64,000 nt of DNA from a phage: sequence record NC_101835.1. One strand, written 5' to 3'. Each line of letters begins with the position of its first letter. The stretch's first letter is position 1. A program made the translations under genes and the position numbers. Below the pieces are notes generated by a model, which did not search any database, was not told the origin of the DNA, and was given only the letters and a program-made list of their open reading frames with translations. Shown piece by piece: positions 2,849-23,040 of this stretch.

Positions 2849-3247
2849 GTGAAAAATAAACTGTTTAAAGTTACAATGAAAATTCGCGGGGCTTGGAGCG
2901 TAAAGCAAGGGCGTATTCCAGAATTTGAGAAAGACTTCTACGTAGTCTCCACCTCGGAGGAGGCTGCATGCTGGCAGGCTGGCTATGCCTATGCAAGAAC
3001 CTGGTACGAAGGATACCAGACTGGGGGCTATGACGGAGAAATTATCAGCAAGGGTGTAGAAGAAATTAATGTGTTGACAAGTGAAAAAGTTTTTGTTATA
3101 GTGCATCCAGATTCCAGAGTGAAGCATTACTGGAATGCCAGAACAAAAACTTGGACACCGTTTGCAGATTCTGCTACGCCACTTTTAAACCAGAAAGCTC
3201 TTGACTCTGCCCCAAGTTATGGGGTTGTTGAAGAAAAGCTAAACTGA
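2849..3247 (+). CDS. hypothetical protein, paralog family 2 (copy A)
   Basis: GTG start inferred; C-terminal HPDSRVKHYWNARTKTWTP matches HPHSNIAYYWDVLNNEWTP of 5059-5454. Confidence 0.5.
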   Translation: MKNKLFKVTMKIRGAWSVKQGRIPEFEKDFYVVSTSEEAACWQAGYAYARTWYEGYQTGGYDGEIISKGVEEINVLTSEKVFVIVHPDSRVKHYWNARTKTWTPFADSATPLLNQKALDSAPSYGVVEEKLN

Positions 3248-3264
3248 AACAGTGAGGTGTCACC

Positions 3265-3555
3265 ATGATGGATTTAATTCTAAATATTGATAACGCAGGA
3301 GAGTTTAAAGACGATGGTGTAACAAGCATGGACAAACCCTGCTCTGCTAAGGTTGACTCAAAATGGACCTACAAGTTTGACGGAGAGATCTTCGCAAATG
3401 ATGAGAAGGTTGTAGATGCTGCAGCCATTTTAAACGCTCTAGGGTACGACCCTGTGAATTCTTTGATCAAGGATCCTGTTGAGTTTGCAGAGTATGTTCG
3501 AAAAATGGCAGATCTTGCTGTGGATATTTTAAAAACTATCGACAACAAGCTGTAA
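3265..3555 (+). CDS. hypothetical protein
   Basis: GTGAGGTG RBS before ATG. Confidence 0.5.
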   Translation: MMDLILNIDNAGEFKDDGVTSMDKPCSAKVDSKWTYKFDGEIFANDEKVVDAAAILNALGYDPVNSLIKDPVEFAEYVRKMADLAVDILKTIDNKL

Positions 3556-4458: not shown

Positions 4459-4722
4459 ATGATTGTTTATTTTAAAACTTCAGGTGGATACCCTGATTCT
4501 CAAAGCTTGATCGGAAAAACGTGCACAGCATACTCACCTCTTGATGAGGAGGTAAGCGATATTTTACGAAATATGTATCGGATTGACCCCCAAGAAGCCT
4601 TTGATCAAAACCTTGTATTTGTCAAGGGCTCAGATATGAAGTCTTTGGGAGCATTCCCTGAAGCAGATGATGATGCCGTTTATTCGTTCATGACTCCTTT
4701 TGAAGCTATGGTTGTTGGGTGA
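4459..4722 (+). CDS. small acidic protein, paralog family 1 (copy C)
   Basis: GAGGTG RBS; GKTCTAY / FVKGSDMKSLGAF resemble family 1. Confidence 0.5.
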   Translation: MIVYFKTSGGYPDSQSLIGKTCTAYSPLDEEVSDILRNMYRIDPQEAFDQNLVFVKGSDMKSLGAFPEADDDAVYSFMTPFEAMVVG

Positions 4723-4726
4723 TAAT

Positions 4727-5059
4727 ATGAAAGTACGCTTTATTGGTGAAACAATTCCTGTGCATCTCCGGTCGCCTGAGGATTCTGCAGATCTTGCATC
4801 TCAAAAGGCGAGAGGTTATGATAAGAAAGTAACCTCAACCGATGTAGTGCTTGAGGCTACTAGTCTACCTGACCCTGCTGCATTCTTTAATCATTATGGG
4901 TACTATTTCAGCAATCTGATGAATATCGGTGAGCTTGTGTTTATTAGTGGTGGAGAAATTGTTAGCAAGCTTGGCGGCGATCCGGATATCTTTCATGAAA
5001 CCTGTCCTTTTGCATTTGTGGTAGGTTCAGATGTGGAAGTTATTGAGGAGGTGCGGTAA
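4727..5059 (+). CDS. small acidic protein, paralog family 1 (copy D)
   Basis: ATG at 4727 (track TTG 4700 less likely); C-terminal FVVGSDVEVIEE matches family 1. Confidence 0.5.
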   Translation: MKVRFIGETIPVHLRSPEDSADLASQKARGYDKKVTSTDVVLEATSLPDPAAFFNHYGYYFSNLMNIGELVFISGGEIVSKLGGDPDIFHETCPFAFVVGSDVEVIEEVR

Positions 5060-5791: not shown

Positions 5792-6142
5792 ATGAAAGTA
5801 GAAATTACCGGTTTTGATGTGAATGTGGTTCCGGAAGATATTTTAGCTAAACTTCCAGAAGGTTTTGGTAACGGCGTTGTGGTGGATGCTGTTCCTCCTA
5901 CCAAAGACATTCTGCTGCAGTATGGTGTAGCAGAGGAAGATGTCGATAAAGTTCTTACAATGATGGCAATCGATCGTGTTGTCGTTGTTAAAGGTCTCGA
6001 TAATTTTGAGAGTGATCCCTTGATTATTCGTGGAGATGACTACAAAATCATCGATAATGAAGGCCAAGAGTTCTATGAACCTTGTGCAGAAGATATTCTT
6101 AACTTATTACTGGAAGCAGGTACCGAAGAGGAGGACGAATAA
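5792..6142 (+). CDS. small acidic protein
   Basis: ORF directly abutting upstream stop; acidic C-terminus EEEDE. Confidence 0.5.
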   Translation: MKVEITGFDVNVVPEDILAKLPEGFGNGVVVDAVPPTKDILLQYGVAEEDVDKVLTMMAIDRVVVVKGLDNFESDPLIIRGDDYKIIDNEGQEFYEPCAEDILNLLLEAGTEEEDE

Positions 6143-6471
6143 TGAAGATTGACCCGTTACTGAAGGCTCGTGCAGAAAAAGCGTACACCATTAAGCTGAC
6201 CAACCTGGTTCCTACTTGTCATCCAGATGTAGGTTGGCCTGAAGGTCTGGTAGAGGGGACTGTAACAGCTGCATACCTCCCTAACATCAAATACCTCATG
6301 GAAATCTTGGAGCTGGATGAGGAAACGGCAGAAGAGTTCCAGTTGGACATGAAACAAAGTGGGACTCTGGTTATTCACGGGTGGTACAATACTAGAGATG
6401 CAGAAGACCCTCTGGTAACTTCTAATCTGGCATATGAAATCTTAGGGCCTTTGAACCTGGAGGAAGACTAA
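6142..6471 (+). CDS. small acidic protein
   Basis: GAGGAGGA RBS; start overlaps upstream stop. Confidence 0.5.
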   Translation: MKIDPLLKARAEKAYTIKLTNLVPTCHPDVGWPEGLVEGTVTAAYLPNIKYLMEILELDEETAEEFQLDMKQSGTLVIHGWYNTRDAEDPLVTSNLAYEILGPLNLEED

Positions 6472-10342: not shown

Positions 10343-10918
10343 TCAGCCAGAAATATCTGAATAGGCCCAATTCTACCACGATTTTGACCTGACCTACAGG
10401 GAGGCCCGAAGGGTCTAGCTTTCAGCTAGAGTCCTTGCAGGACCTACAGGAGCGCTGCCAGGCGGACGGAATGGGAATACTTCTCATTCTTATAACAATT
10501 CTCAAATATCGAGGCAGTGAGAGAAATTAATAGGCCAGGCCGTTCACACAGTGGCACAACATTTGCAACCTATTTTGTGTGGATGAATGAGAATACCTAT
10601 CATTATGAGAATAGTTATCATTACTGGCAATTTAACATAATACCCATTATGCGCACCACTGGCGATCCATACAGGGATTGATAACATGAGTTACTGTTTA
10701 CGCATATAACAATTATATTTATTACTATTTGTGTTGGGTATAGTTAGCAGCCGATAGATTAGATATTGACCTGCAGACTTCCAACTGTCTAGACGTCTAA
10801 ACGCCCACACAGCAAGGATTATACATACACAACTGAATGTAAACAGGGCCGCAAAAATGCTACCATACCAGATTGTAAATTTTTCATGCAGCACTTGACA
10901 AAGAGGAGGAAAACTTGT

Positions 10919-13970: not shown

Positions 13971-14061
13971 TGTGTCCATCCTCTTTCTGCTACGTTTAAG
14001 GCGGCGGTAACCGCCTGTTTATGCTTTGTTGGTTAATTTTCGGGTATAGGTATAAATTAAA

Positions 14062-14277
14062 CTATGCTGTACGCTCAACTATAACAACGGCTTGAGGGAT
14101 CTCACCTTCAACCACTATCAAGGCTTTTTTCTGCGTGATAGATATCTTTACCCGCTTCAGCGTGGCGGTAAAATCTTTCATTTCGTCACGTGGTGTTTTA
14201 GTGCAATACCAGATCTCAGGCTTGCCGATCTGTAAGTTGCGTAAAAATTCTGTTTTGCCTGTTTTGTTAGTGATCAT
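14062..14277 (-). CDS. hypothetical protein
   Basis: GTGAGG RBS. Confidence 0.5.
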   Translation of the reverse strand: MITNKTGKTEFLRNLQIGKPEIWYCTKTPRDEMKDFTATLKRVKISITQKKALIVVEGEIPQAVVIVERTA

Positions 14278-14286
14278 TTGGCAACC

Positions 14287-14391
14287 TCACCCGATACCGT
14301 TGGAAGACAAGATCGCATTAGCCATGGTTGCAATCAGGCCAATACCCAGGGCAATAACCAAGATCACTGCATCGATTAATTTCTGTTTCAT
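14287..14391 (-). CDS. small hydrophobic peptide (34 aa)
   Basis: MKQKLIDAVILVIALGIGLIATMANAILSSNGIG; AGAAGAGAA upstream; below track cut-off. Confidence 0.3.
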   Translation of the reverse strand: MKQKLIDAVILVIALGIGLIATMANAILSSNGIG

Positions 14392-14468
14392 GGTGTTTAT
14401 TCTCTTCTGTTAGTAACCTTATTCATGGGGCCGCTACCACAGCCCCAAGGTAAGGCAGCTATGTGCTT

Positions 14469-14714
14469 TTAGTGTTTCATTCCAACCATCGCGGCACGGA
14501 TCGCCGTAGTGCTGTACTTGAAGCCGTCCGGGGTCTTATCTTGTCCGGTTAGCTCCAGAAAAAGCATCATATCCCGCGCCGCATCATTACGATTAGCATT
14601 GGCGTTAATAAAGCCTTGGGCCAACCGGTACAATGACTCATCGTTATTAATCCAAAGGCTTACATTCCAATGAGTTTTGTTTTTGTAACCGTTATAACCT
14701 TTATTGCTTTTCAT
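14469..14714 (-). CDS. hypothetical protein
   Basis: AGAAGAGG RBS. Confidence 0.5.
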   Translation of the reverse strand: MKSNKGYNGYKNKTHWNVSLWINNDESLYRLAQGFINANANRNDAARDMMLFLELTGQDKTPDGFKYSTTAIRAAMVGMKH

Positions 14715-14805
14715 GGTGTTTACCTCTTCTTTGTTCCAGGTGGCGGATCATTCTACCACCTTATGTATTATGCTTTGTTAGATGGTTGTTTGTTGTCAAA
14801 CTATT

Positions 14806-14985
14806 TTACCGATAATCATCATATGCTTTATTTACCTGGCGAATATAACATTCAAAAGCCAAATCAATAGATTTATATTCACGGATATACTCACCATAGG
14901 AAACCACATACATTTCTATAGCTTCCTCATATGCGAGGAGAATAGAATCTAAGCCTACGATCTCAGTCTTTGCAATAATAGCCAT
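14806..14985 (-). CDS. hypothetical small protein (59 aa)
   Basis: MAIIAKTEIVGLDSILLAYEEAIEMY..; AAAGAGGATAAAAAATC before ATG; below track cut-off. Confidence 0.35.
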   Translation of the reverse strand: MAIIAKTEIVGLDSILLAYEEAIEMYVVSYGEYIREYKSIDLAFECYIRQVNKAYDDYR

Positions 14986-15060
14986 GATTTTTTATCCTCT
15001 TTGTGGTTGGTGGGGTTCGTTGCCCCTTTGATTTATATATTACAGTCTTATATGGTCATG

Positions 15061-15294
15061 TCAACTATTTTCAAAAAATTTTTCTGCTGTGATATTCTTC
15101 CCGGTAGGGTTCGCTACTTTCAAAATTTTATCATGCACTGGACGCCCAAAAGAATAAGCGCCGTACACAGTAAACCAATAATCGCCGTCAGGTTGTACTA
15201 TTACTGCCGCATATGGTACGCCTTTTTCGTTTTTGCTGACAAAATAGATCACGTTGCCATTAATAGCCTCGGCGCGTTTAATTTGTTCCATCAT
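15061..15294 (-). CDS. hypothetical protein
   Basis: AGAGAGG RBS. Confidence 0.5.
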   Translation of the reverse strand: MMEQIKRAEAINGNVIYFVSKNEKGVPYAAVIVQPDGDYWFTVYGAYSFGRPVHDKILKVANPTGKNITAEKFFENS

Positions 15295-15350
15295 GATGAT
15301 TTGCCTCTCTTTATTTTCATAATTGGGGGGCCTTTTCGGCCCCGCCAGGT

Positions 15351-15635
15351 TTATTTATTGATAGCGTGCAGCGGGAAAGGTACGCCAGGTTGATAGATAA
15401 CCTTTACAACCTCATCAGGACAAAAGAAGTTGCAGAACTCACCGCAATAGGCCTCATCCTCTTTCAACTCTTCATCAACATACTCAAAAAAGTAGTCGAT
15501 GCTTGGATAATCTTGACCAGGGTTATAATCAACCATAGTGAGGACCAGTTCAAGATCATTGCGGATGATATGCATACCAGCTTTTAAATACTTCGCTTCC
15601 ATTTTTACTACATCGCCAGCGGTAACAATAGCCAT
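15351..15635 (-). CDS. hypothetical acidic protein
   Basis: Start moved to MAIVTAG (AGGAG RBS); track start 15701 lies upstream of the RBS. Confidence 0.5.
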   Translation of the reverse strand: MAIVTAGDVVKMEAKYLKAGMHIIRNDLELVLTMVDYNPGQDYPSIDYFFEYVDEELKEDEAYCGEFCNFFCPDEVVKVIYQPGVPFPLHAINK

Positions 15636-15866
15636 GGTTTTAACTCCTGTTTCTGTTAATGATTGGAGGCATAACCCCCCTCGACAACTCTTATTATCCA
15701 TATTGTAGGGCTTGATGCAAGTACTTCTTTAAAAAAAAAAATTTTTTAAGTGCCTTGGAGGCCGCTGTAACGCCAAAATAATAAAGGCCATGCAACCGCA
15801 TAGCCTTTATGTGATTATATCGCTGCAGGCCCTGCTAGGGGCCTTATTTTGCATCATTTGCCGGAA

Positions 15867-16175
15867 CTATACAGAGAAAACATCGTTCACAATAGCGATC
15901 ACAATGCCGCCCACCTTGTCACGGTCAACAATGCACAAATCACCATAGATCATGTGGTAGTCTGGATGATCTTTCACGGAATAGTCAATGAGCGTTTTCT
16001 TGTCGTCCAGCTTTGTAACTTCCATTCTCATAACGATATGAGAATCATCAAAGGCATTATTCCGAAAAGTCATAGCCTGACCACCAGGGCACCCAGTGAT
16101 CTCCACTTCCACACCGTCTACGATCTGACCATCAAAGAAATAAAGATTATTAGCCAGGATAAACATGTTTATCAC
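15867..16175 (-). CDS. hypothetical protein
   Basis: AAGGAGTG RBS. Confidence 0.5.
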   Translation of the reverse strand: MINMFILANNLYFFDGQIVDGVEVEITGCPGGQAMTFRNNAFDDSHIVMRMEVTKLDDKKTLIDYSVKDHPDYHMIYGDLCIVDRDKVGGIVIAIVNDVFSV

Positions 16176-16214
16176 TCCTTGTTAACTGCGTGTTATTTTA
16201 CCACGATTAAAATT

Positions 16215-16258
16215 TACTTTACTGATGGCCCTGGCGTCAAGGCCATCTAAAAATAAAT
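16215..16258. repeat. 44-bp conserved hairpin element, copy 1
   Basis: TTTACTTTACTGATGGCCCTGGCGTCAAGGCCATCTAAAAATAA; hairpin GATGGCC/GGCCATC; directly follows the stop of 16259-16459. Confidence 0.55.
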
Positions 16259-16459
16259 TTACAGGCCTACAATCTCTTTGATTCGTTTAACTGCTGCCTC
16301 AGCGCCTTGGGGGTAGAAATTATGGTAACCGATCACGCGAGTGATACTAATCGCAGTTTGATGATCTTCATAATAGCCCTTGAAGATTTCTTGACCGTCA
16401 ATCAGCACGGCAATTTTTTCTTCTTTTTTGAAGTTAATAACGCGGATATTGTTGCTCAT
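16259..16459 (-). CDS. hypothetical protein
   Basis: AAAGGAGAAA RBS. Confidence 0.5.
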   Translation of the reverse strand: MSNNIRVINFKKEEKIAVLIDGQEIFKGYYEDHQTAISITRVIGYHNFYPQGAEAAVKRIKEIVGL

Positions 16460-16716
16460 TTTGTTTCTCCTTTCTGGTTTTTGTGTTGGTGGGGATTAGC
16501 TCCCCGTTGATTATTATTATCCATATTTCGGACCGGATTGCAACACCCCGGAAGAAAAATTTTTTGAAAAAGTTAGGCCCCCAGGGATCGGGGGCCGTTA
16601 TCAGTTACTTACAGCGATAAAATACATCCCTACGCCTAACAATATTTCAAGGGCGATGATCTCAAGCCATACCATAACCCGGCGCACCTTATCGGTGCGG
16701 GGCTTATCCTTGGTTG

Positions 16717-16964
16717 TCATCGTCTCCCCCTTTCATCCTGGTAGTAGTGACGTGGTTTACAATGGCCCCCAGGAGTACCATCACCACGCACATCACAAGA
16801 AAAATTATCTCTGTCGTTGTTCGATCCATTGTTATAAAATTCCTTAAGATCAGGCCTGAAAATAAAGCGTTCGTTATTGAATCCATCACGCCAGGCGGCT
16901 GGCTTCAAATCTTCATCAAAGGGATTAATTAACGTGGTATTATTTAAACGGCTGGCCCACATAT
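16717..16964 (-). CDS. hypothetical protein
   Basis: ATG after GAGAGGAATAGAAAAT; an alternative overlapping frame (16704-16889) also exists, so the call is uncertain. Confidence 0.3.
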
Positions 16965-17310
16965 TTTCTATTCCTCTCAAATAGGCGATCCGCCTCAGTT
17001 AAACAAATCTCATGGGCGTGATCTCTGGTTTTAGCTTCATCGAAAACCTGTTGTGCAAGGCTGCAGCGTAGGGAGACTGGAAGATCACTATAATAGGCGT
17101 TGACAAATGTTTGCGCGTCATACAGGTCGGAAAATACTTTACCCTTTCTATTATCGCCTTTGTCAACAATTGCAAGGATAACAAGTACAATAGTTGCAAC
17201 CACCCCCAGGAAAATAGATATAATAAACCATAAAAAGGCGGATCTACCCATCTTGCCAGCGATCCAGGCGTTAAACAAGGCAACTAATACGGCCAAAATA
17301 ATAAATTCCA
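16940..17310 (-). CDS. membrane protein (two predicted TM segments)
   Basis: AAAAGAGGTACATAGA before ATG (MEFIIL); hydrophobic ILAVLVALFNAWIAG and FLWFIISIFLGVVATIVLVILAIV. Confidence 0.5.
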
Positions 17311-17375
17311 TTCTATGTACCTCTTTTGCAGTTCTGTTTAACAATAAGGCGGCAAATATGCCGCCTGTTACCTGA

Positions 17376-17755
17376 TTAAAAATTATCGCCGTAAATCTTT
17401 CCGCTTTCTGCCCACACCACCACGCGGGGCATACTATCCCACACGTCTTGTTTTAGATTGAGCGCGTGCAATTCTTCGGTGGTGCCCATACCAGGCACGG
17501 GCTGATTGTATACTGCAAAACGACCACCCGCATAGTCATAGGCCAGAGTTAAATCACACTGGATCATCTTTTTGATCATGGCATTAAGCATGGCGTTAGC
17601 CGCATACTGATCACGTTTTAAAGGCAACTCTTTGATTAGTTTGCGATAGTTTTCAATGTGATCGCACACTGTTTCACGTGGAAGATCTTTCATATCCTCG
17701 CGAAAGGTAACCAGGTTAAACATGACGGTGTCAATAGCTTTAGTAGTGTTTTTCA
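17376..17755 (-). CDS. hypothetical protein
   Basis: AAAGAGGAAAACATC before ATG (MKNTTKAID). Confidence 0.5.
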
Positions 17756-17810
17756 TGATGTTTTCCTCTTTGTTTTGTGTGGGGGGCAAACGTCTTGCCC
17801 CTTGAGTTTT

Positions 17811-17838
17811 AATATAGCAGGTTTTTAGATTATTGCAA
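17811..17838 (-). promoter_or_regulatory. sigma70-like promoter (TTGCAA-N16-TATATT)
   Basis: On minus strand, followed by a GC hairpin (17781-17801) and RBS of 17376-17755. Confidence 0.4.
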
Positions 17839-17846
17839 CACTTTAT

Positions 17847-18470
17847 TTATGAAAAACTCATCTCTCCATATTCATCCACATCAAACCGCCAATCATTGGC
17901 CTCGATAAGGCCGATCAGGTTTTCGGTAGTAAATTGTTCAAGATAAGCTTGCTCCAGGTCTACGTAAACCTTGCGGGATAGTTCCCGTACGTTCTCGGTG
18001 ATCAACTCTTCCAGCTCTTCAACCTTACTTTCTTGCTTGGCTGTCAGGTCTAGCCATGTAGTATCGATGTACCCGCTTACAGTGTTTTCGTGACTATAGC
18101 GGCTATATGGATCACGCTCAACACTTGCGGATAGCTCGCCATCGTGCATTGTGCCGAACAAGTGACGAATTGAGCGGAATTTAGTCAGAGACTTGACTTT
18201 ACGCAAGAATTTTTCTAAATCCACGTTTTCCGCACTGATTGACGCGCCGTCGCCCTGGCACCAAAAGCCGGACCAATGTACCTTGGTATCTTCAAGGCCA
18301 TACTCTGGAAAGATATGTTCTTTATAGTCTTCAATTACACTTTCTGCAAAAAAGTTATCCCCGCTGTGTTCTTCTCTTTCGCGGACCATTTCAATAGCTT
18401 TTTCTTTTTGTTCATCGGTCAGCACGTCGAAAGATAAATTGTAACCTGTGGTAATGTTAACGGTGGTCAT
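17847..18470 (-). CDS. hypothetical acidic protein
   Basis: ATAGGAGAAAATATC before ATG. Confidence 0.55.
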   Translation of the reverse strand: MTTVNITTGYNLSFDVLTDEQKEKAIEMVREREEHSGDNFFAESVIEDYKEHIFPEYGLEDTKVHWSGFWCQGDGASISAENVDLEKFLRKVKSLTKFRSIRHLFGTMHDGELSASVERDPYSRYSHENTVSGYIDTTWLDLTAKQESKVEELEELITENVRELSRKVYVDLEQAYLEQFTTENLIGLIEANDWRFDVDEYGEMSFS

Positions 18471-18527
18471 GATATTTTCTCCTATTTTCTTTGTTAGTGG
18501 CGGGAAGTTTTCCCGCCTGTGTGTTTA

Positions 18528-18555
18528 AGTATACTTATCGAGATTTACTTGTCAA
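18528..18555 (-). promoter_or_regulatory. near-consensus sigma70 promoter (TTGACA-N16-TATACT)
   Basis: Minus strand TTGACA (18550-18555) and TATACT (18528-18533); then 5-prime UTR hairpin GGCGGGAAAACTTCCCGCC and RBS. Confidence 0.5.
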
Positions 18556-18805
18556 CACTATTTTTTAAATTATTGTGGCGCAAAATGCTTAAAATCTCTT
18601 CAACGTCATCAACACGGCGGCAATTTTTAAACGCTACCAATTGCCCCATGATTTTAATCACTGGACGGCCTTGCCAGTGCCCCTGGAGAAAGCGCGCCTT
18701 GACTTTATCGGTGGAACTATCACGCCACCAAATGGCCTTGTTATTGCAGTAGTAAAAATTATTCAGGACAACATCAACTTTATCAAAATTTTTTAATTTA
18801 CGCAT
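18545..18805 (-). CDS. hypothetical protein
   Basis: AAGGAGTAAACGCC before ATG. Confidence 0.5.
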   Translation of the reverse strand: MRKLKNFDKVDVVLNNFYYCNNKAIWWRDSSTDKVKARFLQGHWQGRPVIKIMGQLVAFKNCRRVDDVEEILSILRHNNLKNSVDK

Positions 18806-19051
18806 GGCGTTTACTCCTTCCTTCTTGCTTTGATGTGGTTAGTATATCCGGACTATTCCAAGGTGTCAAGCTTTAAATAAAATCACTGTCAATGATATTT
18901 TTTAACACCATAAAACGGCCCTGGGTGATGTTTTCAGGTTAATAAAGGGGATTGCATAGGTAGGGGCTTTTGTGGCGTTTGTGGGGCCAACCAGGGGCGC
19001 TATTCGTAGGATAGAAATAAAAAACCCCGCACAATGGCGGGGCGTTGGTTG

Positions 19052-19249
19052 CTATTTGTCTTTGTGGCGGTATCGTTCCGCTTGTCGTTCACGTTCCAAA
19101 AGCAGGCTGGGTAATTTGCGATCATAGTGATTTCGCCAGATCTTCCCAAATCTTTTCGGCTTATTCAGTTTATTGTTACGCTGGCGTCGTTCCGGCAGCT
19201 CTTCGGAATCATGAGATCGCTTTACAATCTTCTCAAAATTAATCTTCAT
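19052..19249 (-). CDS. small basic protein
   Basis: AGGGGGGAATAT before ATG (MKINFEKI); K/R-rich. Confidence 0.4.
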   Translation of the reverse strand: MKINFEKIVKRSHDSEELPERRQRNNKLNKPKRFGKIWRNHYDRKLPSLLLERERQAERYRHKDK

Positions 19250-19592
19250 ATATTCCCCCCTTGCTAACTTCAATATTGGCCTGAATAGCCCGGATACGGC
19301 GCTTTATAACCTCCTGATCCTTGCAATCATATCCCCAAAAGTCTACGATTTTTGCGCCTCCAGCCTTTAGGCGGTATAGTGTTTCTTGCATCTTGTAAGC
19401 CGGGATCGGTCGCGGTGTTACCTGGTCGCCCTTCTCATTCTTGTACTTGATAATGTAGTCTTCATTGTCGTTGAATACCCAAAATGGGTATTCTGTGAGC
19501 GCGTTGCTCTCTTTTTCGTTTTTAGATTGGATCTTGTTTACAATTAAAGCCGTAGCAATAGCGCCAATAATAAAACTTGCCCCGCTGATCAT
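19239..19592 (-). CDS. membrane-anchored protein
   Basis: AAAGGAGAAAGTAC before ATG (MISGASFIIGAIATALIV). Confidence 0.5.
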   Translation of the reverse strand: MISGASFIIGAIATALIVNKIQSKNEKESNALTEYPFWVFNDNEDYIIKYKNEKGDQVTPRPIPAYKMQETLYRLKAGGAKIVDFWGYDCKDQEVIKRRIRAIQANIEVSKGGIYED

Positions 19593-19667
19593 GTACTTTC
19601 TCCTTTCATTGTGTTGATAAACTATCTTTATAGATGGCCCTGCTACCAGGACCACCGAAAAAACAGC

Positions 19668-19913
19668 TTATTTGACGATACCGACAAAACAGATCCCGCC
19701 TTCCCCTATATAGGCAATATCGGTAATTTTATAATTTGTCAAGATCCGCGTGTTCAGATCATTAATAAAATCGGTCATCGCGTTGGTGTGGTTGTCTTCC
19801 GTGTCTAAGGCATAATCCCAGGTGTAAACCTTTTTACGTCCGAAGCCTTTTACCATGATACGGGCGCTTTTGGTGTTGGTAGGGGCATAATATTTGGTGA
19901 TTAGTGCTGCCAT
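19668..19913 (-). CDS. hypothetical protein
   Basis: AGAGGAG RBS. Confidence 0.5.
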   Translation of the reverse strand: MAALITKYYAPTNTKSARIMVKGFGRKKVYTWDYALDTEDNHTNAMTDFINDLNTRILTNYKITDIAYIGEGGICFVGIVK

Positions 19914-19956
19914 GGTTTTAACTCCTCTGAATTAGTTCAGTGTTAACAGTATAAAG

Positions 19957-20000
19957 TTTACTTTATTGATGGCCCTGAAGTCAAGGCCATCTAAAAATAA
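19957..20000. repeat. 44-bp conserved hairpin element, copy 2
   Basis: TTTACTTTATTGATGGCCCTGAAGTCAAGGCCATCTAAAAATAA; directly follows the stop of 20003-20344. Confidence 0.55.
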
Positions 20001-20002
20001 TC

Positions 20003-20344
20003 TTACTCGTTTTCTTCCAGCTCCGCAAGCTCTTCTTTTGCTTCTTCTAACTCTGTCTGTAGTTCCTGGTATTCTTCATCGTCCTCAATATCCAGGCTGT
20101 CGATGTAGTCGCTAAATCCGCAGCGGTAAGCGATAGGATCTAGCTCCTTGAGGATACGCGACGGAAGAAAAGAAATGTTTCCGATCATAATTTCGCCGTA
20201 GATCTCGTCTAACCATTCATCATAGTTTTCGTCGTACTTGTCCTCGTCGATTTCAAAGTTATCGATCTTGTTCTCAAGGTCTGCGATCTGTTTTTTCAGC
20301 GCGGCGATCTGCATAGCTTTTTCTGCGGCGGTCATAGTAGTCAT
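20003..20344 (-). CDS. acidic coiled-coil protein
   Basis: AAAGGAGAAAACACC before ATG; E/D-rich. Confidence 0.5.
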   Translation of the reverse strand: MTTMTAAEKAMQIAALKKQIADLENKIDNFEIDEDKYDENYDEWLDEIYGEIMIGNISFLPSRILKELDPIAYRCGFSDYIDSLDIEDDEEYQELQTELEEAKEELAELEENE

Positions 20345-20395
20345 GGTGTTTTCTCCTTTTGTGTGCTCTGGGAAGTTTTCCCGTTTACGTGTTTA

Positions 20396-20423
20396 AGTAT
20401 ATCGATCTAAGTTAGTTTGTCAA
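20396..20423 (-). promoter_or_regulatory. near-consensus sigma70 promoter (TTGACA-N16-TATACT)
   Basis: Same promoter-hairpin-RBS layout as 18528-18555; hairpin GGGAAAACTTCCC. Confidence 0.5.
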
Positions 20424-20577
20424 TTAAAAATTTAAGAAAAATTTTGCAAAACTGTTAGCGCTACTCATTAACATTTGCGCCAGGATGTAACCGACAACGC
20501 AAACGATAATAGTTACCTTTGTGTATTGGCGTGTAGTGCTCATCTTAAAGCCCCCTTTTTTCGCTTAGTTGAGATTA

Positions 20578-20622
20578 GTTTACTTTATTGATGGCCCTGA
20601 AGTCAAGGCCATCTAAAAATAA
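20578..20622. repeat. 44-bp conserved hairpin element, copy 3
   Basis: GTTTACTTTATTGATGGCCCTGAAGTCAAGGCCATCTAAAAATAA; directly follows the stop of 20625-21020. Confidence 0.55.
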
Positions 20623-20624
20623 AC

Positions 20625-21020
20625 TTAGTAAGTTTTCAGTACTTTACCGTCCAACCTGTCAAGCTGGATCTCGATAGCTGCAGAAAACCTATTGTAAACC
20701 ACATCGCCCATAGAATCCAACCAGTCTATGACATTATACACCTGCTCTTTATTCTTGCAAGTCCGGATCCGTTTCATTACGTAAGACGGATCAATATTAG
20801 TGCTCCCGTTGTTGTGGTCATGCGCCTGGCCTGCTGCACTGGTTATAGATTTTACAACCACCTGAAAGGGCTTTAAGGTGCCTTTTGCGTTCATCTCACG
20901 CGCTTTTGCGGCGCGGTTGTTATATGTTACACAACGGCGGCAAATGTTGACTAAATGCATGTCAATAATTTTTTCATCGTTTGCCAGTTCGTTCATGATG
21001 CGGCGTACGTTCTTATTCAT
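20625..21020 (-). CDS. hypothetical protein
   Basis: AAAGGAAAAAAGATC before ATG (MNKNVRR); track start 21119 lies upstream of promoter and RBS. Confidence 0.5.
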   Translation of the reverse strand: MNKNVRRIMNELANDEKIIDMHLVNICRRCVTYNNRAAKAREMNAKGTLKPFQVVVKSITSAAGQAHDHNNGSTNIDPSYVMKRIRTCKNKEQVYNVIDWLDSMGDVVYNRFSAAIEIQLDRLDGKVLKTY

Positions 21021-21069
21021 GATCTTTTTTCCTTTGTGCTGGCGGGAAACATTCCCGCCTTTTGTGTCT

Positions 21070-21097
21070 AGTTTACTTAAATTTTGCAGCGTGTCAA
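21070..21097 (-). promoter_or_regulatory. sigma70-like promoter (TTGACA-N16-TAAACT)
   Basis: Followed by 5-prime UTR hairpin GGCGGGAATGTTTCCCGCC (21043-21061). Confidence 0.45.
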
Positions 21098-21103
21098 TGA
21101 TTT

Positions 21104-21502
21104 TTATTCGTGGGCGCATGTCACAATGTGCTTTTTATAGCCCAGGTGGTCAGCAAGTGCCGACAAAAACTCTTCTTCGTAGATCCAGCCGTCGGCAGTG
21201 ATCCCCATAGCATTTAATGCGCTCTCAAGTGCTGCGTTAGCTTTATCGTAACCGTGACCGCTAGCCTTGCCGCCAGTATAACCGTACTTATTGTTCTTGT
21301 TGTCGTGAATCCAAAACACGCAGTAGTGAGTGTTACCACTGGCGGCGGCATAATACCGGATCTCAGCTACTTCGTGCAAATTATTGTCATCGTCCAGGCC
21401 CACCAGATTATAAGCCTTGTAAAATCCACGATCACGGCGGCAGTTCTTGACATCAGAAAAAGAAAAGTCGGCATTATCAAAATTAAAGGTTGTGGTTTTC
21501 AT
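21104..21502 (-). CDS. hypothetical protein
   Basis: TAAGAGGATAAAATC before ATG. Confidence 0.5.
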   Translation of the reverse strand: MKTTTFNFDNADFSFSDVKNCRRDRGFYKAYNLVGLDDDNNLHEVAEIRYYAAASGNTHYCVFWIHDNKNNKYGYTGGKASGHGYDKANAALESALNAMGITADGWIYEEEFLSALADHLGYKKHIVTCAHE

Positions 21503-21566
21503 GATTTTATCCTCTTAGTGTCTTTTGTGATTTCAGTATATTTTGTGTCAGACTACATGTCAATAT

Positions 21567-21768
21567 TTATTTTTTATTAAACCAGTGGTTGATCTGACCT
21601 TTTGTCAGGGCGCAACGATTAAGCTGTTGCAGGGTATAGCTATGACCGCGACGAAATTTATAAAGGCCTTGCCCGTTGTTGATGGTTACATCCACCCGGC
21701 AAATCACTTGATTGGTGACCACCTGGCGAGTGTTGCGACGTACTTTAATTCCGTAGGCGTTCATGATT
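21567..21768 (-). CDS. hypothetical basic protein
   Basis: AGAGGATAAAAAAATC before ATG (MNAYGIK). Confidence 0.4.
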
Positions 21769-21850
21769 TTTTTATCCTCTCTGTTAATTGGTGTGGTGTT
21801 GTTCACCTTGCGAGGATAAGAATAACAAGAACTGTCCGAGCTGTCAACCA

Positions 21851-22027
21851 TTAGTTAAAATTATTTTTTGGGTAGAATTCTCCAGCCGCCGCCCCTGCCA
21901 GGTTAACCATCATTTTTTCGTACTCTTCTTTATGTTCCAACGCTCCCGCCATAGCCTTTTCAACCAGGGCGATAGCCTCAGCGTCATTAATAGCTACATT
22001 TTCCAGGGGGATCATATTACCTTCCAT
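21851..22027 (-). CDS. hypothetical small protein (58 aa)
   Basis: AGGAGGTACAAAA before ATG (MEGNMIPLENVAIN..); below track cut-off. Confidence 0.4.
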   Translation of the reverse strand: MEGNMIPLENVAINDAEAIALVEKAMAGALEHKEEYEKMMVNLAGAAAGEFYPKNNFN

Positions 22028-22069
22028 TTTTGTACCTCCTCTTCAATTGTTACCTATCCTATAGCATAG

Positions 22070-23040
22070 GCCCACCAGGTTTACAAGCCTTCATTCTCCC
22101 CTACCTGGTCAGTTAGGTCCTGCCAGGCTGGCCCCGCCAGGTTGCAGCGGTTAGCGCATCAGGTTAGAAAAATTTTTTGAAAAGTGTTGACAGCGGCCCC
22201 GCCAGGTGGCACAATATACCTATCGAAAGGACGGCAGGCACTGGTGACGGGGGAGACAACCACCGGGGATGGGCGCTGCATAAAATGAGAACGATTATCA
22301 TTATCATTTAAAAATTTATGCAAAAAATCCTTGCTTTCTTTGTCCTGTGTGATACTATAATAACAAGCCGGGGCAACAGGGGCCGGGAGACAATCACCGG
22401 GCCTGCCCGTTATTCTGCAAACGAGAATGATTATCATTCAAAATTCTAAATGAGAACTCCTCGCATTTAATAAATTTAATTAGCACGCTAATTACCTACC
22501 GTGACAATTATATATAAAATAATACCTCCTAAAATATTTCCATATACAAATTTTAAAAATCCATTTCTGAAAACGAAAAATCGATTTCGTCCCCAAAAAT
22601 TTCAGGTCGAGATCCGGAACGATTTCCAGAAAATCCGATTTAGAAAACGAAAAACAGATCGAGTACTGAGAAATTTATCGAGAAAAATTTTCAGAAAATC
22701 CAAGCCATGAAATGAAAAGTAGATCGAGTACTGGAAAAATTGTACCGCAACCCACTGATAGTGATGGGTTTTCCGTCATAAATCACTAAGAGTGAGTGGA
22801 GAAAGGTATGGTGGAGAGGTGTGTATGTGTGGGAAATCTGTAATGGTGGCCTGAAATATGGTGCAAACGGCTAGATAGATTGGCACAATTTTCCGCGCCT
22901 GTGTTGAAAAAATCCATTTTAGTTTTCGATCCATTTTCTGATTTTCTAAGGATTTTAAAATATCCTGGTAGGTAAAATATCAAAAGGAGGAAATCCATTT
23001 TAGAAATCCCCCTTATACTTGATATGCCAGGAATTTTCAA
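22070..23040. repeat. non-coding repeat island (GC-rich motifs, tandem about 60-nt units, AT-rich iterons)
   Basis: GGCCCCGCCAGGT x2; two units GGGAGACAA(C/T)CACCGGG...GAGAA(C/T)GATTATCATT; 22500-23040 has repeated AAAATCCATTT(T/C) and AGATCGAGTACTG. Confidence 0.5.

Follow-up and report, generated by a model that had tools for sequence, protein, structure and literature searches.

A PeSL-like hairpin element as a putative boundary of early-gene cassettes in an rV5-like coliphage

Background

The early regions of the T4-like phages RB49, phi1, PST and nt-1 contain promoter-early stem-loops (PeSLs), in which an upstream stop codon within an AT-rich stretch is followed by a sigma-70 early promoter, a stem-loop, and the Shine-Dalgarno sequence (SD) and start of the next ORFan (Arbiol et al. 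2010, PMC2839356; Comeau et al. 2014, PMC4122927). A subclass of PeSLs has a stem-loop "overlapping the -35" (PMC2839356). Fusions to lacZ demonstrated both promoter and terminator/attenuator activity, and recombination between PeSLs yields indels and mini-circles (PMC2839356, PMC4122927); in vivo, a PeSL stem-loop cut downstream lacZ expression as strongly as rrnB T1 (PMC2839356). We describe here an element of similar layout in a 64,000-nucleotide stretch of phage DNA from record NC_101835.1, referred to as the window. The full element is a hairpin-forming spacer of about 55 bases that lies directly 3' of stop codons and is present in four copies, designated A to D, in the early-gene region.

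The window derives from an rV5-like coliphage (Vequintavirus) and shares 94-97% identity over 7 kb with JES2013, Gotham, rV5 derivatives and several phages mislabelled 'Campylobacter'. Phages of this type are in wide use as candidates for therapy and biocontrol; ORFans without annotation make up their early region, whose regulation is only predicted. The explanation to which we give somewhat better than an even chance is that the element is a PeSL-like cassette boundary, which would combine an RNA hairpin for the 3' end of the upstream cistron, a moderate sigma-70 promoter in copies A, B and C, and a recombination joint. This explanation is drawn from the structure, conservation, distribution and recombination of the element, which the sequences show, and each functional step is put forward conditionally.

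Location and copies of the element

The genes of this region are on the minus strand, and an earlier note on this DNA had placed three copies of a 44-bp hairpin element, starting at 16215, 19957 and 20578, right after leftward gene stops. A degenerate 44-nt pattern gave exact matches in the window at 16213-16256, 19957-20000 and 20579-20622 (plus-strand coordinates) and no match in 100 dinucleotide-preserving shuffles with 3 mismatches permitted. The three copies are thus real, and so is their placement: the upstream open reading frames (ORFs) end at 16259, 20003 and 20625, stop codon included, and each 44-mer therefore lies 2 nt from a minus-strand stop codon. The start at 19957 had been given exactly, and the other two, properly 16213 and 20579, were off by 1-2 nt. 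A relaxed stem search located a fourth, diverged member of the same geometry (stem match 19633-19656), and the stem, described earlier as 7 bp in three near-identical copies, is really about 20-23 bp in two tiers. The copies are as follows.

20574..20628, minus strand: copy C, whole two-tier hairpin (upper stem 20613-20590, 3' internal loop 20589-20587), between the ORF ending at 20625 (rV5 ORF194 homologue) and an ORF of 39 amino acids (aa) starting at 20543
19952..20006, minus strand: copy B (upper stem 19991-19968, 3' internal loop 19967-19965), between a 113-aa ORF (20003-20344, rV5 ORF192 homologue) and an 81-aa ORF (19668-19913, ORF191 homologue)
19617..19671, minus strand: copy D, the diverged fourth member (3' internal loop 19632-19630), directly 3' of the 81-aa ORF (stop 19668-19670)
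16208..16262, minus strand: copy A (upper stem 16247-16224, 3' internal loop 16223-16221), between a 66-aa ORF (16259-16459) and an ORF with its ATG at 16166

All four copies have the same orientation and fall within 4.4 kb of hypothetical early genes, which are small ORFans. The distance from stop codon to upper stem is 10-12 nt throughout, and the SD and ATG of the next gene lie 35-46 nt past the element. A consensus early promoter lies 250-500 nt upstream of each copy and no terminator intervenes, so that the copies should be transcribed in polycistronic early mRNA. Copy A has the apical loop ACGC, not ACUU, and a single A>G change in an internal loop. In copy D the 5' arm reads GGUGGUCCUG, pairing is achieved via two extra G·U pairs, and TTGAC is missing.

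RNA structure and selection on the sense strand

On the minus strand the element has the sequence UAA-(N)-UUUAUUUUU-(UA)-GAUGGCCUUG-ACNN-CAGGGCCAUC-(AAU)-AAAGUAAAYU, and the RNA folds into a two-tier hairpin of about 20-23 bp in total. The lower stem is composed of A/U pairs, is 7-13 bp long and has the stop codon inside it; a 2x3 internal loop separates the tiers, and above it stands a 10-bp upper stem with one U·G pair and a tetraloop. Folding energies on the minus strand were -25.0 kcal/mol for copy C (z = -6.2), -23.5 kcal/mol for copy B (z = -6.5), -24.4 kcal/mol for copy A (z = -4.3) and -28.2 kcal/mol for copy D (z = -7.8). The plus strands of the four copies gave -10 to -17 kcal/mol and z between -0.8 and -3.0; values for A, B and C were about -16 kcal/mol and z about -3, and copy D was essentially unstructured (z = -0.8).

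Conservation of the structure was assessed in a gap-free alignment of 32 distinct copies taken from the window, the loci of 13 relatives and one unrelated phage. Standard pairs occupied 97.2% of the cells of the two-tier structure, which includes 10 lower-stem pairs in the model, compared with 36-57% in a control in which the 3' partners were slid by 1-3 columns. Both-sided changes occurred in four lower-stem pairs (G-C/A-U, U-A/C-G, U-A/G·U and A-U/U-A), and five upper-stem pairs varied solely through G·U, equivalent to A·C mismatches on the opposite strand. Among the 23 A/B/C-type sequences, changes fell at apical-loop positions 3-4, in the internal loops and in one covarying lower-stem pair, and the upper stem had two singleton changes. 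The strand asymmetry, the covariation and the G·U pairs together argue for selection acting on the sense-strand RNA.

Distribution

A covariance model built from the 32 collected copies recovered exactly four members in the window. These scored 70-80 bits on the minus strand (copy C 80.2, B 77.7, A 74.9 and D 70.4) and 30-43 bits at the same sites on the plus strand (41.9 for C and 30.1 for D). The complete 137-kb genome of a relative also contained exactly four members by this model, all inside one 4.4-kb stretch, and no further members were found in the window or in the other ~87 kb of the close relative. By BLAST, the element was present in 120 phage records, at 346 places in total and usually three per record, and no copy was found in 5,426 complete E. 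coli genomes. Conservation in close relatives, one of the two points by which the earlier note would have its proposal judged, is borne out by the four members of the 137-kb genome and by the presence of the element in about 120 rV5-like records.

An Rfam scan of positions 14000-23000 returned two sub-threshold matches only (E 0.65-0.87), one of which lay over copy D at 22 bits against an 80-bit cut-off. Scanning IMG/VR with a degenerate upper-stem pattern recovered mostly an unrelated Pseudomonas-phage hairpin family and chance matches. With regard to the records themselves, 17 entries named 'Campylobacter phage' (MG0656xx; D1, C5, A147 and others), carry the mark UNVERIFIED and share 94-99% identity with rV5-like phages of E. 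coli; their own taxonomy line is Vequintavirus, and the Campylobacter host labels are probably wrong.

Promoter-like motif in copies A, B and C

A consensus promoter scan assigned to copies A, B and C a sigma-70-like motif, TTGACN-18 nt-TAAAYT, with a score of 9/12.

20577..20606, minus strand: motif of copy C, TTGACT at 20606-20601, an 18-nt spacer and TAAACT at 20582-20577
19984-19955, minus strand: motif of copy B, 9/12 in the promoter scan
16240-16211, minus strand: motif of copy A, TTGACG ... TAAATT, 9/12 in the promoter scan

The hairpin spans the -35 box, the spacer and the -10 box. TTGAC was invariant in 23/23 A/B/C-type sequences, and the following two loop bases vary freely (TTGAC-T/G/A). 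Its AAGTAAACT recurs unchanged as the -10 region of P194, a published consensus promoter of rV5, and in the Gotham record PhagePromoter features are placed in the gaps between genes where copies A and B lie. In phage KKE7M, a GC hairpin, ACAAAG and an SD leader begin 11 nt past the -10 of the element, as they do after bona fide promoters in these genomes. The statement that the element is not a well-spaced sigma70 promoter was therefore too strong: the match is indeed marginal, but it comprises a 9/12 motif, a PhagePromoter call in a relative and a -10 region in common with P194. Public annotation is divided. The Murica record labels copies A and D 'terminator' and the rV5 reference has no annotation there, so that the element is a promoter in one record, a terminator in another and unannotated in the reference genome.

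The consensus early promoters of the region (for example 21097-21070, 20423-20396 and 18555-18528) are followed, about 10 nt past the -10, by a GC-rich hairpin and then by ACACAAA and an SD. This hairpin of the 5' untranslated region (5'-UTR) is a repeated family, often GGCGGGAA..UUCCCGCC, and occurs ahead of minus-strand genes at 15012-15026, 16485-16511, 17780-17804, 18499-18517 and 21041-21059. On the plus strand its members score as terminator-like sites.

Cassette loss, conversion and transfer

Two segments that end in copies of the element were of particular use in comparing relatives.

20001..20578, minus strand: C-B cassette, consisting of the 39-aa ORF (20424-20543), a consensus promoter (20423-20396), a 5'-UTR hairpin and the 113-aa ORF (20003-20344)
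19957..20424, minus strand: segment at 95% identity in Escherichia phage KKE7M (Justusliebigvirus, a different subfamily), which starts at the consensus promoter's -35 and stops with the final base of copy B

The C-B cassette plus one repeat, 622 bp in all, is absent from four relatives (L003, L006, L007 and L013). BLAST blocks stop at window position 20577 and restart at 20003-20014 with an overlap of ~49-61 nt in the relative, and the overlap means that one repeat and the intervening cassette are missing. Phages phiWec189, magaca and ime and one IMG/VR contig each have a single chimeric element, with the left flank of C and the right flank of B. As judged from these joints, recombination between copies C and B deleted the 622-bp cassette in the four relatives. 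Copies B and C of one genome had the same loop variant in 5 of 6 genomes, with three variants in circulation (TT, TC and AC), which indicates conversion between the paralogues.

KKE7M (L014) contains four small early-gene cassettes with 75-95% identity to the window but in a different order: its positions 3175-3510, 4694-4887, 6001-6468 and 10537-10816 correspond to window 17725-17390, 14998-14804, 20424-19957 and 14342-14064, respectively. To judge from the alignments, the KKE7M cassettes are a case of modular shuffling of early ORFans across subfamilies.

Losses were also seen in other relatives. Copy C of Gotham (L001 6575-6600) has a 5-nt deletion, CAGGGCCATC to CAATC, that removes the 3' arm and reduces the -35/-10 spacer to 13 nt; it is either a dead copy or an assembly error in the record. 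In rV5_ev146 (L012), window 21035-20531 and ~5.8 kb (19102-13257) are absent, the joints being 10-15-nt overlaps outside the element, and much of the early region is dispensable. The idea of a small mobile element, taken as an autonomous one, found no support, with only four copies in 4.4 kb and 0 in 5,426 E. coli genomes; yet the copies mark the ends of deleted and transferred cassettes.

Counterparts in other phages

The 81-aa ORF between copies B and D has homologues of 44-48% identity in Seuratvirus siphoviruses such as CAjan, SD04 and CSP1, and these are likewise flanked by two-tier hairpins. In the Seuratvirus hairpins the stop codon is in the 5' strand of the lower stem (UAAGUUUUCUUAUAC) and the 3' strand reads AAUAAGCAAACUAA, and the upper stems, of 9-10 bp, are unrelated in sequence and differ from each other. 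CAjan has three copies in all, around divergent early promoters, and the rV5-derived covariance model detected the third at E ~0.0015. Because the Seuratvirus copies are without credible promoter boxes, the hairpin is the conserved core of the element. A search of IMG/VR with the lower-stem pattern and a free upper stem gave 74 stretches, of which only 3 were further genuine examples (Seuratvirus-like), so that the wider family is small. A literature search on Seuratvirus intergenic elements returned nothing relevant.

A separate set of ~25 Pseudomonas temperate-phage-type contigs from IMG/VR (L017-L047) has an identical 10-bp upper stem, GAUGGCCUUG-GNRA-CAGGGCCAUC. The hairpin has its own lower stem (UUUCC/GGGAAA) and immediately precedes the SD of first early genes of diverse kinds; in Pseudomonas phage Medea1 (L133 1500-1555) a promoter next to cI is followed by a ~330-nt leader with the hairpin at its end. 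An Rfam scan of these loci found no matching family. The identity of the upper stem is either convergence or coincidence.

The two-tier hairpin might act as a portable 'punctuation mark' that a specific host factor recognizes, RNase III being the simplest candidate, and that travels with ORFan cassettes among coliphage families unrelated to one another (Vequintavirus, Justusliebigvirus and Seuratvirus). We regard this as decidedly unlikely. If true, it would mean that the lower stem (UAAGUUU...AAUAAG.AAACU) is better conserved than the adjacent protein (48% identity) and that the Pseudomonas-phage upper-stem identity reflects the same recognition code and not chance.

Proposed function

A PeSL-like cassette boundary would act at three levels. 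In the RNA, the most likely role of a hairpin beginning at the stop codon is to delimit and shield the upstream cistron at its 3' end. It would do so either by being cut by RNase III in the 3' internal loop or by blocking 3' exonucleases, attenuation being another possibility; such processing or protection would uncouple the fates of neighboring cistrons. In the DNA, the apical part of the hairpin may supply the -35 (TTGACN) and the 3' strand of the lower stem the -10 (TAAAYT), 18 bp apart, so that A, B and C would each provide a moderate internal sigma-70 promoter for the downstream gene, which copy D would have lost. The near-identical copies of ~50 bp serve, in addition, as substrates for homologous recombination, by which, as the genome comparisons show, cassettes are deleted, homogenized and transferred. 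The earlier suggestion of a processing or regulatory element is the direction in which sense-RNA covariation and the geometry of T7 RNase III sites point, although the function itself is inferred.

With about two helical turns of double-stranded RNA interrupted by a 2x3 internal loop, the element has the geometry of RNase III sites. For comparison we folded the T7 early sites R0.3, R0.5, R1, R1.1 and R1.3 at coordinates that we take to be those of Dunn and Studier (1983), as the sites are not annotated in the RefSeq record. At these assumed coordinates R0.3 to R1.3 formed upper stems that contain G·U pairs and measure 9-13 bp, R1.1 having 10 bp, and apical loops of 3-5 nt, with a 3'-side internal loop, where cleavage occurs, flanking pairing beneath and no U-tract. 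The register of the 10-bp upper stem on R1.1 is our own inferred mapping. A U-A / U·G 'distal box' has been reported as optimal for E. coli RNase III, and a G-C or C-G pair is inhibitory when it occupies position 2 or 4 of the proximal box, which has 4 bp (PMC1540722). By the R1.1 register, the distal box, beside the loop-closing pair, is U-A / U·G in A, B and C, matching R1.1, and U-A/C-G in D; proximal-box position 2 is A-U, which is no antideterminant, and position 4 is an A·A mismatch. The upper-stem pairs are thus compatible with RNase III recognition and not diagnostic of it, and by analogy RNase III is the leading candidate for processing of the hairpin.

A boundary made of hairpin plus promoter would explain the recurrent presence/absence polymorphism of 622 bp in the genus. 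It would carry the modular shuffling known for PeSLs beyond T4-like phages, with one clear inter-subfamily transfer. It also predicts transcription start sites, RNase III cuts and mini-circles, and bears on early-gene dosage in rV5-like phages.

Several observations weigh against the proposal. The promoter is marginal, with an 18-bp spacer that is GC-rich, and its 9/12 class is frequent by chance, with 38 sites in the region versus 20 expected; since TTG is equally explained by the RNA pairs, the loop 'AC' is the sole independent evidence for a promoter, and copy D has no promoter boxes. On the RNA side, proximal-box positions 1 and 3 in the R1.1 register hold U-A and G-C where G-C and A-U would be preferred, and the covariation is mostly one deep split between the A/B/C and D lineages, with few independent events. 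There are only four copies, all in 4.4 kb, a narrower distribution than one might expect of a general processing signal. Individual copies are also dispensable, as copy C of Gotham is destroyed and evolved rV5 derivatives are without A and C. The rV5 genome paper and its Table S4 name the element neither promoter nor terminator, and searches of the accessible literature, among them one for Vequintavirus transcriptomes, turned up no transcript-end, cleavage or reporter data for rV5-like phages.

Alternative explanations

The main rival is a pure RNA element, an intercistronic processing hairpin of the RNase III type (or a site for another endonuclease, or an exonuclease barrier) whose likeness to a promoter is fortuitous or a relic. 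We consider this unlikely, although it would accommodate much of what was observed: the structure, the G·U asymmetry and the covariation are all on the sense RNA, copy D and the Seuratvirus counterparts retain the two-tier hairpin without a credible -35 or -10, the geometry and distal-box pairs resemble T7 R1.1, and the promoter score is within the range common by chance. It accommodates less well the loop 'AC' and the entire TTGAC, invariant in 23 sequences although neighboring loop bases vary, the -10 region identical to that of the consensus promoter, and the hairpin of 5'-UTR type found at promoter distance in KKE7M; the proximal-box positions, moreover, are not optimal for RNase III.

An explanation at the level of DNA would make the motif a sigma-70 promoter with the palindrome as operator for a dimeric phage or host DNA-binding regulator. 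A 24-bp near-palindrome extends over the -35 box and spacer, a place where repressors frequently bind, and there are three near-identical copies ahead of early genes, but we hold this explanation to be very unlikely. Substitutions retain pairing on the minus-strand RNA only, as G·U pairs with A·C mismatches opposite, and copy D folds on the minus strand only, whereas an operator predicts conservation of sequence and not strand-specific pairing; nor would an operator account for the lower stem or for the stop codon inside it. The strand asymmetry of pairing therefore speaks for selection on the sense-strand RNA, and it was on the strand-specific conservation of G·U that the operator was rejected as a candidate.

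A factor-independent or attenuating terminator, as annotated for copies A and D in Murica, is highly improbable. It would suit a strong hairpin directly past a stop codon, and the activity of the PeSL stem-loop, equal to that of rrnB T1 on downstream lacZ in vivo (PMC2839356), is in its favor. However, the tail after the hairpin is CAAUAAAGUAAA, with no U-tract or T-run on either strand and the U-rich run on the 5' side, and none of the copies was reported by a terminator scan that did detect real terminators nearby. The operons concerned end in such canonical terminators.

19024..19043, minus strand: canonical intrinsic terminator (stem + TTTTTT; terminator scan), which ends the operon containing copies B and D
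15781-15810, minus strand: similar intrinsic terminator (terminator scan), which ends the operon containing copy A

Termination at copy D would, furthermore, leave the genes downstream of it without a promoter. The earlier description of the element as no canonical terminator was correct on these grounds, namely the missing U-tract and operons that end in ordinary terminators elsewhere.

Finally, a selfish or neutral repeat, be it a miniature mobile element or a recently duplicated functionless linker, would fit copies that are clustered, individually dispensable and associated with insertions and deletions, but is extremely improbable for an element with only four copies in a single orientation at a constant distance from the stop codon (10-12 nt to the upper stem), with no target-site duplications, no copies elsewhere in the 137-kb relative or in E. 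coli genomes, and a structure kept with compensatory change across ~120 phage records and a second phage family.

Neighboring repeat-rich region

Outside the cluster of copies, window ~22100-23000 is non-coding and rich in repeats, with three repeats of ~65 nt at 22538-22741 and, at 22290 and 22420, two repeats of 48 nt at a distance of 130 nt. The motif ACCTGGCGGGGCC has three exact occurrences (15338, 22130 and 22195) versus 0.6 expected. This stretch is probably the 'non-coding' box of the rV5 genome map, and it is possibly an origin or regulatory region.

Comparison with known systems

The element shares with intrinsic terminators a stable GC-rich hairpin just past a stop codon, and differs from them in having no 3' U-tract, in the 5' position of its U-rich run and in going unreported by the scan. 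Repetitive extragenic palindromes (REP) and bacterial interspersed mosaic elements (BIME) of E. coli are imperfect palindromes after stop codons within operons; they can stabilize the mRNA upstream of them, and those no more than ~15 nt from the stop codon can interfere with termination of translation. An imperfect palindrome right after a stop codon inside an operon is common to REP/BIME and the rV5 element. There is, however, no sequence relation and there are 0 copies in E. coli genomes, the rV5 element being phage-borne and bearing a promoter-like motif. The plus-strand sequence GCCCUGAAG equals the first 9 nt of what we take to be lambda nutL boxB. A lambda nut boxB was rejected as a candidate: the match is on the non-coding strand, the stem is 10 bp and not 5 bp, and there is neither a GNRA-like pentaloop nor a boxA.

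Resemblance to the T7 RNase III sites is closer. The T7 sites are hairpins between cistrons of early polycistronic mRNA, which host RNA polymerase transcribes, and the layout here leads one to expect the same of the element. In both, a lower stem and an asymmetric internal loop lie beneath an upper stem of ~10 bp that includes G·U and is capped by a small apical loop. In T7, minor E. coli promoters (B and C) are placed at such sites, which the marginal promoter-like motif here would parallel. The two differ in that there is no sequence homology and the proximal-box pairs are unlike those of R1.1.

The RB49 PeSLs, on inspection of their sequences, proceed from stop codon through AT-rich stretch, TTGACA, hairpin and -10 to leader and SD, and none has a U-tract; several fold in two tiers with the -35 region paired to the -10 region. 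The rV5 element has the same order of a stop in an AT-rich stretch, a stem-loop over a sigma-70-like promoter, a leader, an SD and the start of a small gene, and the same stable sense-strand stem-loop with G·T pairs overlapping the promoter. In both systems the repeats lie in a hyperplastic early region, cassette indels between relatives end in the repeats, and a U-tract is missing. The promoter here is weaker (TTGACN-18-TAAAYT versus the PeSL consensus TTGACA-17-TATAAT), and the hairpin has 20-23 bp in two tiers with a GGCC-rich stem, in contrast to the 7-bp GGGG/CCCC stem of PeSLs. There are four copies instead of dozens, the lineage is Vequintavirus, and the promoter, terminator and mini-circle activities demonstrated for PeSLs would be putative here. 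In all aspects of layout and behavior examined, the rV5 element appears to correspond to PeSLs, with promoter boxes of 9/12 in A, B and C that are absent from D. Most likely it combines an RNA hairpin with a weak promoter in a way known from T4-like and T7 phages, and it introduces no new principle.

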